From positions 782 through 64,781 of the forward strand of contig DASXXC010000037.1 of the NCBI GenBank assembly GCA_036503335.1: DNA of 64,000 bases. The letters are read 5' to 3'. The translations under genes and the position numbers were made by a program. The stretch is from Thermoanaerobaculia bacterium (lineage in GTDB: Bacteria; Acidobacteriota; Thermoanaerobaculia; Multivoradales; UBA5704). A model generated the notes under the pieces. It was not told the DNA's origin, did no database searches, and saw only the letters and a program-made list of their open reading frames with translations. Below are positions 39,063 to 40,035 of the stretch, in pieces (positions within the stretch are counted from its first letter, which is position 1; each line of letters starts with the position of its first letter).

Positions 39063-39527
39063 ATGACTATGTCAAACGAGCTGACGGTCGACAACCAGCA
39101 GATGTTCCTGCTTAGCGATGATGAGTGGGACACGGCTCTTCGCGATGGAGTGTGGGAGGATCTGCTCCTGTTCTACCCGCCGACAAAGCCGCTGATCGAG
39201 GCAATGCTGCGGTTCACCAGAGCACACGGCGACGCGTTTCGTCTTGCGCTGTTCAGGGATGGTCCGTATATCAAGACGTGGGCGGTGATACACTTGCTCG
39301 CCACCCGGTATGGGTGGCAGCGAGTTTTTGTCGAGCGCGTGCAGTGCGATGCTTGTGGTGCGAAGCTAATGATCGCCAACCCTACTGTCGCCGACCTGTA
39401 CTTCGGCGTGGAAAATTGGGCGGAGTTGATGAAGCGCGCGACGGCATCGGGGTCGCTACGCTGTATTCAGTGCGGCGAAAAGCTGCCTCGCTTCGCGATA
39501 TGGGTGGAAGCTCTCAAGGATGAATGA
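39063..39527 (+). CDS. candidate immunity protein 1 (154 aa, CxxC...CxxC zinc-ribbon-like C-terminus)
   Basis: The ATG lies 4 nt after the rhs stop. CDAC and CIQC pairs are 45 residues apart. No family recognised. Position immediately 3' of a polymorphic toxin domain. Confidence 0.55.
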   Translation: MTMSNELTVDNQQMFLLSDDEWDTALRDGVWEDLLLFYPPTKPLIEAMLRFTRAHGDAFRLALFRDGPYIKTWAVIHLLATRYGWQRVFVERVQCDACGAKLMIANPTVADLYFGVENWAELMKRATASGSLRCIQCGEKLPRFAIWVEALKDE

Positions 39528-40035
39528 AGGTGGTATGGACAGGAAGACGCTTCGACCGGCGTGGCAGCCAAGCCTGGCTCCGGGTCGCGAATGGACGCTG
39601 GAGCATCTGCGGAAGTACCTCGGTGGGCGGTCGTTCACCCTGTATGCCCATGGCTCCTGTGTTGTGTGGATTGGGGCCGGTGAGCTCAATGTCGCCGAAG
39701 CCAATCAGCGGCTGCGTGCCGTGACCCTCCAACACCCGGACTTCAGGGTTCAGCGGCACACTGACGGCAACTACCTCGTGACGTTCAAAGGCGGCGTTGG
39801 CGGCCTCATGTCCGGCGAGTTCTTGGCGACTCACTGGGCAGGTTTACGCCAGGAAGCCCGAACCCTGGGAATACTGCCTTCCGAGAAACTGCTTGTCGAT
39901 CGGCACGATGACGCGGAAGAGCTAGACATGATCGCGGGGCTGTACGTCCGCGCGCATCTTTACAGGGATGTGGACGAGCTCGTCGTGGCGGCGACTGTCC
40001 GTCGGAGTTACGCCGAAATCTCTGGTGAATCATGA
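39520..40035 (+). CDS. candidate immunity/accessory protein 2 (171 aa)
   Basis: ATG 39520 overlaps the preceding stop (39525-39527) by 8 nt, suggesting coupling. No family recognised. Same lower-GC cassette. Confidence 0.45.
   Translation: MNEGGMDRKTLRPAWQPSLAPGREWTLEHLRKYLGGRSFTLYAHGSCVVWIGAGELNVAEANQRLRAVTLQHPDFRVQRHTDGNYLVTFKGGVGGLMSGEFLATHWAGLRQEARTLGILPSEKLLVDRHDDAEELDMIAGLYVRAHLYRDVDELVVAATVRRSYAEISGES

Follow-up and report, generated by a model that had tools for sequence, protein, structure and literature searches.

The window analysed here, a stretch of 64,000 nucleotides (nt) from a Thermoanaerobaculia bacterium (contig DASXXC010000037.1), carries on its plus strand a giant Rhs open reading frame (ORF) of 4768 amino acids (aa), with its stop at 39058, followed by two small ORFs on the same strand. 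The initial annotation, made from the sequence alone, described the two as candidate immunity genes of 154 and 171 aa, the first lying 4 nt behind the toxin gene and the second overlapping the first by 8 nt. This is correct for the longest forms in the ORF list, ORF1 at 39063..39527 and ORF2 at 39520..40035. The deposited annotation and our alignments of homologues both start the proteins slightly later, ORF1 at M3 (ATG 39069, 152 aa) and ORF2 at M6 (ATG 39535, 166 aa), which gives spacers of 10 nt between toxin and ORF1 and 7 nt between ORF1 and ORF2. Shine-Dalgarno-like purine runs lie a few bases 5' of both starts (GAGG at 39057-39060 for ORF1, AAGGTGG for ORF2). ATG 39520 stays a candidate start for ORF2 (171 aa), since eight related loci appear to use the 8-nt overlap. 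Depending on the starts chosen, the spacers in the window are 4-10 nt and -8 to 7 nt, respectively; ORF1 and ORF2 are tightly coupled whichever ORF2 start holds.

Strong homologues exist for both ORFs, indicating real genes beyond chance. A word-indexed protein database held 8 homologues of ORF1 (E values 1e-50 to 1e-100) and 34 of ORF2 (1e-32 to 1e-107 over both sets), with many more of each in the loci fetched later. Proteins identical to both have been deposited from a Thermoanaerobaculia metagenome-assembled genome (MAG) as VGP73_02330 and VGP73_02335, each named 'hypothetical protein'. A promoter and terminator scan, otherwise uninformative, found no promoter-like or terminator-like signal between toxin, ORF1 and ORF2. 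The G+C content dips to about 0.57-0.62 over roughly 37800-40650, against 0.66-0.70 in the flanks, and this stretch spans the toxin tip, ORF1, ORF2 and a minus-strand ORF at 40030..40701 (223 aa, no Pfam match). The dip is consistent with a laterally exchanged cassette, perhaps larger than three genes. The features of the locus are collected in Table 1.

Table 1. Features at the 3' end of the Rhs gene and in the two genes behind it (window coordinates).
Feature	Position	Strand	Remark
DPMGL motif, end of Rhs-associated core	38153..38167	+	TIGR03696 Rhs_assc_core (E 1e-20) ends here; motif from translation
Linker / pre-toxin module (CLGFNDE...DTFLVDPLRAGQATGDAIG...)	38168..38614	+	Recurs in proteins with unrelated C-termini
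Toxin domain (~147 aa + stop), predicted R-S-E ADP-ribosyltransferase	38615..39058	+	Family without annotation; motif conservation
Candidate catalytic R (VYRG)	38636-38638	+	Invariant R13 in alignment
Candidate catalytic S (MSVTTD)	38876-38878	+	Near-invariant S93 in alignment
Candidate catalytic E-x-E (GESEYL)	38996-39004	+	Invariant E133, E135 in alignment
ORF1, predicted cognate immunity protein	39069..39527 (or from 39063)	+	Downstream of toxin in 37/37 loci
ORF1 CxxC-35-CxxC element	39345..39473	+	C95, C98, C134, C137
ORF2, predicted facultative second immunity protein	39535..40035 (or from 39520)	+	In 21/37 toxin loci

The Rhs-associated core lies within the last 386 residues of the 4768-aa ORF and ends in DPMGL, the expected autoproteolytic release site of a C-terminal toxin. 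About 150 residues follow that we read as a reusable, conserved linker or pre-toxin piece; proteins P0047-P0051 match this part only (28-42% query coverage) and then continue into different C-termini. The toxin domain proper starts at ERMIQVYRG and takes up the remaining ~147 residues. An exhaustive profile search recovered 217 representatives of its family at 50% identity clustering. In the best 150 of the 217, which are proteins of about 60 to 7325 aa, it is found at the C-terminal end or close to it. When 57 diverse members were aligned, the only invariant residues were R13, E133 and E135, with S93 near-invariant. This is the R...S...E-x-E order, with 40 residues from S to E-x-E and 80 from R to S; the latter spacing exceeds that of classical R-S-E ADP-ribosyltransferases (ARTs).

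Neither the window's toxin copy alone nor an 8-sequence profile matched any Pfam or other family, and hints of relationship became visible only with the 57-sequence profile. Across the 57 members, Pfam DRAT matched five (best E 7e-5) and NarE two. The profile's only PDB match was the ART domain of ExoT, in which the STS and ExE motifs line up although the E value of 0.46 is not significant; none of the solved Tre-type toxins was recovered from the PDB sequences. Because of the conserved R, S and E-x-E and these weak DRAT, NarE and ExoT matches, we accept an R-S-E ART as the likeliest identity of the toxin domain, which very probably is one. The premise of the initial annotation that the toxin is an ART is therefore supported by its conserved motifs and by weak profile matches.

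Members of the family are carried by Rhs proteins, by Rhs proteins with a type VII secretion system (T7SS) signal, and by a 1015-aa protein without a Pfam match. The window's own carrier is a giant with a Sec signal, immunoglobulin (Ig) repeats and Rhs, for which we recognised no PAAR, VgrG, T7SS or type VI secretion system (T6SS) marker in the window. Its start seems to have been placed too far upstream: at 24752-25400, a mechanically called GTG start precedes about 160 Arg/Pro-rich residues, and the Met before MTNRSFSSGALTMSRRRPFRPLLPALLGLLAILASLALWAQT, which opens a Sec-signal-peptide-like sequence, is a much likelier start.

ORF1 carries two CxxC knuckles in its C-terminal half. The spacing between them had been given as 45 residues, which is a miscount; C95, C98, C134 and C137 give 35. 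All four cysteines are invariant in 34/34 distinct homologues, whose sources include Firmicutes, Cyanobacteria, Bacteroidetes and Proteobacteria. In these homologues the knuckles commonly read CxxCG/W and CPxCG, a conserved ANPxxxxLY loop lies between them, and an LPRxAIW motif (LPRFAIW in the window) follows towards the C-terminus. Zinc-ribbon and rubredoxin-like elements have two conserved CxxC knuckles some 20-40 residues apart, as does this half of ORF1, and we infer a four-cysteine element of this kind with a predicted metal site.

No significant Pfam or NCBIfam family was found for ORF1, zinc-ribbon families appearing only below threshold. An AlphaFold2 model built from the family alignment (8 sequences) is alpha/beta with a predicted local distance difference test (pLDDT) score of 74.6; its best Foldseek match in the PDB had an E of 0.57, with TM-scores of at most 0.34. 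Profile searches of PDB sequences gave insignificant matches only, and a plasmid collection gave none. Several candidate identities were considered and rejected as not significant. A zf-C3HC match reached 22.8 bits against a cut-off of 22.2 and was found in 7/8 members, but these are all close relatives. Residues ~47-109 resembled PsiB, a plasmid SOS-inhibition protein, in 3/8 members (best Pfam E 0.0048; PDB 3nct at E 0.48), OorD ferredoxin came up at E 0.053, and a GNAT-like fold at a Foldseek E of about 1 (TM-score 0.25).

ORF2 had been described as lacking any recognisable motif, and indeed neither the window sequence nor its family members match Pfam or NCBIfam. Its AlphaFold2 model, also from a family alignment, is alpha/beta with a higher pLDDT of 86.8. 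Foldseek gave nothing better than E 0.06 (TM-score at most 0.34) against the PDB and nothing at E<0.08 against viral structures (BFVD), and a profile search of PDB sequences gave no significant match. The plasmid collection held a single remote homologue, in Ralstonia. Close homologues share the invariant polar residues D69, E117, Y137, R139 and D145, an invariant Cys42, and a glycine-rich FKGGVGG loop; a macro-like reading of this loop was not supported by the fold search.

Transmembrane segments, signal peptides and hydrophobic segments are absent from the sequences of both ORF1 and ORF2, and on the absence of the first two we call the proteins cytoplasmic. Pfam Imm families gave no match to either at E<=1. 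At the same threshold, neither single sequences nor family members matched an ADP-ribosylhydrolase (ARH) domain in Pfam or NCBIfam. The ARH fold is all-helical and both models are alpha/beta; no Foldseek match in the PDB passed E<0.05, and the top 50 contained no ARH. For Macro there was likewise no Pfam match, and no macrodomain structure is among the listed Foldseek PDB matches of the ORF2 model. As judged by sequence and predicted fold, neither protein is an ARH or a macrodomain, in agreement with the initial annotation.

To survey which genes follow the toxin, we ran hidden Markov models (HMMs) of ORF1, ORF2 and toxin on all six frames of 17 toxin-centred loci, taking one genome per species. 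These came from Lysobacter, Stenotrophomonas maltophilia, Undibacterium, Lachnospiraceae, Peptococcaceae, Clostridiales, Paenibacillus (three), Nostoc, Acetobacteraceae, Bacteroidetes, Kofleriaceae and others. In 17/17, the gene immediately behind the toxin on its strand is an ORF1 homologue. ORF2 homologues are restricted to the loci of Lysobacter, S. maltophilia and Undibacterium. Toxin stop and ORF1 start usually overlap (ATGA) in the loci from Firmicutes, where the gene after ORF1 is unrelated or another Rhs fragment. A second scan, centred on ORF2 in metagenome contigs, covered 22 loci: 18 are toxin-ORF1-ORF2 triads, one is too short, one has ORF2 alone (L048) and the remaining two (L051 and L052) are a variant described below.

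When all fetched loci are pooled, the toxin adjoins an ORF1 homologue in 37/37 distinct cases, which span at least seven phyla; the spacer has a median of 11 nt, and many of the pairs overlap by ATGA. It accompanies the toxin domain on every carrier type (Rhs, T7SS-signal plus Rhs, and the protein without a Pfam match). ORF2 is present in 21/37 of these toxin-ORF1 loci, at a median of 2 nt from ORF1 (range -8 to 15 nt) and always in the order toxin, ORF1, ORF2. Where ORF2-bearing toxin loci have a taxonomic name, all belong to Proteobacteria or to this Acidobacteriota MAG; the Firmicute, cyanobacterial and Bacteroidetes loci have the toxin without ORF2. Both genes are thus small, on the same strand, and directly downstream of the toxin or its first partner with short spacers. 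Their linkage follows the toxin domain rather than the carrier or the taxon, ORF1 in every locus, and ORF2 in a subset of the same loci and in a second ART-like subfamily.

The locus in S. maltophilia STE2 (CP158958.1; L011/L015) is a decaying copy of the triad. Insertion sequence (IS) elements interrupt the Rhs gene, of which a toxin-tip gene of 265 aa is left. Downstream of it, the record's gene list misses the ORF1 homologue, and only a truncated ORF2 homologue (HMM positions 5-119) is present.

Members of both families also occur away from the triad. A lone ORF1 homologue with 62% identity (P0007; L001:6001-6459, also in L002 and L003) sits among metabolic genes on at least three near-identical contigs, flanked by an alpha/beta-hydrolase gene and a PAP2 gene, with neither toxin nor ORF2 nearby. 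ORF2 homologues without ORF1 and without this toxin are found in arrays of small genes on one strand: in Stenotrophomonas sp. PS02289 (L007), behind a WHH-like nuclease toxin and a SUKH-1 immunity gene (L048), and next to SUKH-1 and DUF2314 genes on the Ralstonia solanacearum YC40-M megaplasmid (L056:5496-6017; CP015851.1, 1901350-1901871). The Ralstonia homologue is remote (28% identity; hhalign 98.4%, E 1e-14); it keeps the N-terminal and beta-hairpin motifs that define the fold and lacks GGVGG and GLYVRA. Its record annotates a shorter 'hypothetical protein' (A3768_5676) over the C-terminal part of this gene, the start of which was probably mis-called. Overall, cytoplasmic globular proteins of both families are found as orphans or in poly-immunity arrays (ORF1 in L001-L003; ORF2 in L007, L048 and L056) as well as linked to a toxin, and in this they behave like polymorphic-toxin immunity genes.

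The variant loci mentioned above (L051:3-1469 and L052:2-1013, both JGI metagenome contigs) contain a short ART-like toxin, an unrelated gene of 114-121 aa and then an ORF2-like gene. The toxin has the motifs FYRGD, SPFISVTTD and GESEYLV, and its R-to-S distance of about 50 residues is the usual one for R-S-E ARTs. It is homologous to the window toxin in the C-terminal half only (STT...ExE; hhalign 98.1%). The ORF2-like protein is 38-39% identical to ORF2 and conserved over its full length (122 bits, where the toxin scores 30); it has lost Cys42. We rejected the idea that the middle gene of L051 is a cysteine-less ORF1 (hhalign probability 0.1). These loci hold a second toxin subfamily that has only ORF2 in common with the window cassette.

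We also compared divergence among the three genes. Across 19 distinct triads, mean pairwise identity was lowest for ORF1 (0.39) and higher for ORF2 (0.51) and the toxin (0.53). ORF1 was more diverged than ORF2 in every triad pair compared and is the fastest-evolving of the three. Distances of toxin and ORF1 remain correlated when ORF2 is controlled (partial Mantel r 0.48, p 2e-4, a significance inflated by testing related sequences), while those of toxin and ORF2, with ORF1 controlled, do not (r -0.08, p 0.75). The tightest pair is ORF1 and ORF2 (r 0.87). The direction of the Mantel tests agrees with the linkage data in pointing to ORF1 as the toxin's co-evolving partner.

We favour the explanation that the locus is a three-gene cassette made up of an R-S-E ART-like toxin, ORF1 as its cognate immunity protein and ORF2 as a facultative second immunity-type protein, to which we assign a probability of roughly 0.6. 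Toxin domain, ORF1 and ORF2 would be transcribed together, with the two small genes as the immunity end of a polymorphic-toxin cassette. ORF1, made along with the toxin, would bind the toxin domain stoichiometrically and block it in the producer and its kin, with a structural zinc (or iron) site presumably holding its C-terminal half together. ORF2 may have joined the cassette in Proteobacteria and Acidobacteriota as a second, facultative protein that binds the toxin, or its complex with ORF1, at another and more conserved surface and so gives extra or broader protection. It could also persist alone as an orphan immunity gene. ORF2 looks more like a binding scaffold with variable surfaces than like a protein with a fixed active site, as the Ralstonia homologue lacks GGVGG and GLYVRA and the L051 protein has lost Cys42. 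The initial annotation had suggested that one ORF is the immunity protein and the other an accessory or orphan-type immunity gene. Comparative linkage (ORF1 in 37/37 loci, ORF2 in 21/37 and in immunity islands) bears this division out. Its framing by Tri1 was overstated, and its ART premise had been unverified.

Several points weigh against this explanation. Binding and neutralisation of the toxin by ORF1 or ORF2 are predicted from sequence comparison, and the ART assignment from motif conservation and sub-threshold matches (ExoT at E 0.46; DRAT in 5/57). The ORF1 model, built on 8 sequences, is of moderate confidence (pLDDT 74.6), and the p value of the partial Mantel test is inflated, as noted above. 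The lone P0007 may be an orphan immunity gene but would also fit any other function. Finally, the identity of ORF2 matches that of the toxin and exceeds it between the two ART subfamilies, and an enzyme or a target-directed protein would look alike in this respect.

The best-known comparison is Tre1-Tri1, reportedly a T6SS ART effector of Serratia proteamaculans and its ADP-ribosylhydrolase immunity protein. As with Tre1-Tri1 and Imm-ARG, the window pairs a toxin, here predicted to be of the R-S-E type and delivered between bacteria, with a predicted immunity gene directly downstream. It differs in that neither small protein has an ARH sequence or fold, in that there are two of them rather than one, and in the predicted four-cysteine metal site of ORF1. 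The initial annotation had been right to set the pair apart from Tri1, but overstated the contrast. Immunity proteins are nearly all non-enzymatic binders, and the non-enzymatic Imm41 is paired with Tox-ART-RSE (Zhang et al. 2012, PMC3482391). ARH-type immunity, as in Tri1 and Imm-ARG, is the exception rather than the norm; that ORF1 and ORF2 are unlike ARH is therefore expected.

Closer parallels exist among the non-enzymatic immunity proteins of Rhs ARTs: Tri23 (for Tre23), TriTu (TreTu), RhsI2 (RhsP2) and Imm41, of which the characterised ones reportedly neutralise their toxins by binding (PMC8661411, PMC9825190, PMC3482391). Like ORF1 and ORF2, these are small cytoplasmic proteins encoded directly after a C-terminal ART domain of an Rhs protein, although searches of Pfam Imm families (E<=1) and profile searches of PDB sequences revealed no sequence relation to either. 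A two-protein arrangement is found in Pseudomonas aeruginosa, where the H4-T6SS DNase Tde5 is countered by the two unrelated immunity proteins Tdi5a and Tdi5b, the latter binding a Tde5 exosite (PMC13392607). There too, two structurally unrelated immunity-type genes follow one toxin, one of them confined to it and the other more widely distributed; in the window cassette, the first gene is the universal partner and the second facultative. The proposed binding of ORF2 to a second surface would, by analogy, resemble that of the exosite-binding Tdi5b. Unlike here, where they are inferred, binding and independent protection have been demonstrated for the Tde5 pair, and its toxin is a DNase.

An alternative division of labour makes ORF2 an enzyme of new fold that removes ADP-ribose from the toxin's target, an analogue of Tri1, DraG or DarG, with ORF1 as the stoichiometric binder. 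We consider this unlikely, even though ORF2 is conserved to the same degree as the toxin and more than ORF1, and its close homologues share the invariant polar residues D69, E117, Y137, R139 and D145 and the FKGGVGG loop. ORF2-like proteins also accompany two ART subfamilies that are alike only in the catalytic C-terminal half while being conserved over their full length themselves (122 vs 30 bits), and an ORF2 standing alone in an immunity island would have to protect unaided. Set against this are the lack of any sequence or fold likeness to ARH, macro or other hydrolases, and a scaffold-like conservation pattern in which Cys42 is lost in L051 and GGVGG and GLYVRA are absent from the Ralstonia homologue (hhalign 98.4%). 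Firmicute, cyanobacterial and Bacteroidetes loci also manage without ORF2.

Stated more fully, and with the same low likelihood, ORF2 would found a new fold family that reverses ADP-ribosylation or protects the target, giving clade-wide immunity independent of toxin sequence next to ORF1 as a strain-specific binder. The two modes of Tri1, occlusion and reversal, would then be mirrored by ORF1 and ORF2, each mode having evolved here in a gene of its own. Such a role would account for the toxin-level conservation of ORF2, for its association with two ART subfamilies that differ in their middle genes, and for its solo retention in islands.

Perhaps, instead, the two small proteins assemble into an obligate heteromer for immunity wherever both are present, with ORF2 acting through ORF1 and not on the toxin. 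The tight correlation of their divergence (r 0.87), the loss of any toxin correlation for ORF2 once ORF1 is controlled, and spacers of -8 to 15 nt that suggest translational coupling all point this way. However, the correlation may reflect mere co-inheritance, ORF1 occurs without ORF2 in 16/37 loci, and ORF2 homologues occur without ORF1 in L007, L048 and L056 and behind an unrelated middle gene in L051/L052. We regard such a complex as improbable, on a par with the enzyme.

An operational definition of immunity genes and poly-immunity arrays are given by Zhang et al. 2012 (PMC3482391), and arrays have also been described for a Stenotrophomonas vgrG6 Rhs cluster in a preprint. The ORF2 homologues beside SUKH-1 and DUF2314 genes, and the orphan ORF1, resemble the members of such arrays. 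ORF2 might accordingly be a hitch-hiking orphan immunity gene directed against a different, unlinked toxin, the window then holding a minimal poly-immunity array. This would suit its homologues in islands with SUKH-1 and DUF2314 genes and behind a nuclease-type toxin, as well as the variable poly-immunity arrays of Stenotrophomonas Rhs loci (bioRxiv 10.64898/2026.07.13.738213). Yet arrays vary greatly, while ORF2 is a fixed third cassette gene in the window and 21 distinct loci: it follows ORF1 and toxin in 18 of the 22 ORF2-centred loci, and in all 21 triads it keeps the same order with spacers of at most 15 nt. Apart from this toxin, the sole one that we found in direct linkage with an ORF2-like gene is likewise ART-like. 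A hitch-hiker hence seems rather less likely still.

Least probable of all is that neither ORF is an immunity protein and that both are chaperones, activators or regulators of a toxin aimed at eukaryotes; the carrier, a giant that combines a Sec signal, Ig repeats and Rhs and shows no recognisable T6SS or T7SS marker in the window, could suit this, and some ART toxins need helper proteins, as TreX reportedly needs TrxA (PMC11606950), but position, size, cytoplasmic nature and strict linkage to toxin domain rather than carrier are all immunity-like, both families also occur as orphans away from any toxin, and some members sit on T7SS-signal Rhs carriers typical of interbacterial toxins.

Returning to the cassette of toxin, cognate ORF1 and facultative ORF2, what is new is a set of three uncharacterised families, with an immunity protein that carries a site of four invariant cysteines and a second immunity-type gene that is a fixed part in one set of lineages; otherwise the cassette follows standard toxin-immunity logic. 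If confirmed, three families would be defined at once: an ART-like toxin, a universal metal-site immunity protein and a facultative second immunity protein. ORF1 and ORF2, now annotated 'hypothetical protein', could then be named as immunity families. The toxin family is widespread: its 217 clusters (50% identity) range from Firmicutes to Acidobacteriota and use Rhs and T7SS-type carriers. Few cases of conserved dual immunity exist, and our literature search found one with biochemical characterisation (Tde5-Tdi5a/Tdi5b, 2026). With natural one- and two-immunity versions of the same toxin, the cassette would allow a clean study of what drives recruitment of a second immunity protein and whether it broadens protection against diverged toxins.

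Two minor observations concern neighbouring genes. Behind ORF2 in several triads (L004, L005/L009 and L054), a same-strand tetratricopeptide repeat (TPR) protein of 185-236 aa and a conserved 122-aa protein without a Pfam match are encoded, and flagellar or type III secretion system (T3SS) export genes come next in L054 and L011. These neighbours may reflect simple lineage synteny, and the window has no plus-strand equivalent. Further downstream in the window, a formate-dehydrogenase-like gene (41452-44799) is split into two ORFs in the same frame (41452..42033 and 42055..44799), with a single in-frame TGA at 42034-42036 in the context ENQARV*HGPTV. This is the classic selenocysteine position of FdnG/FdhA-type enzymes, and the two ORFs are therefore probably a single selenoprotein gene.

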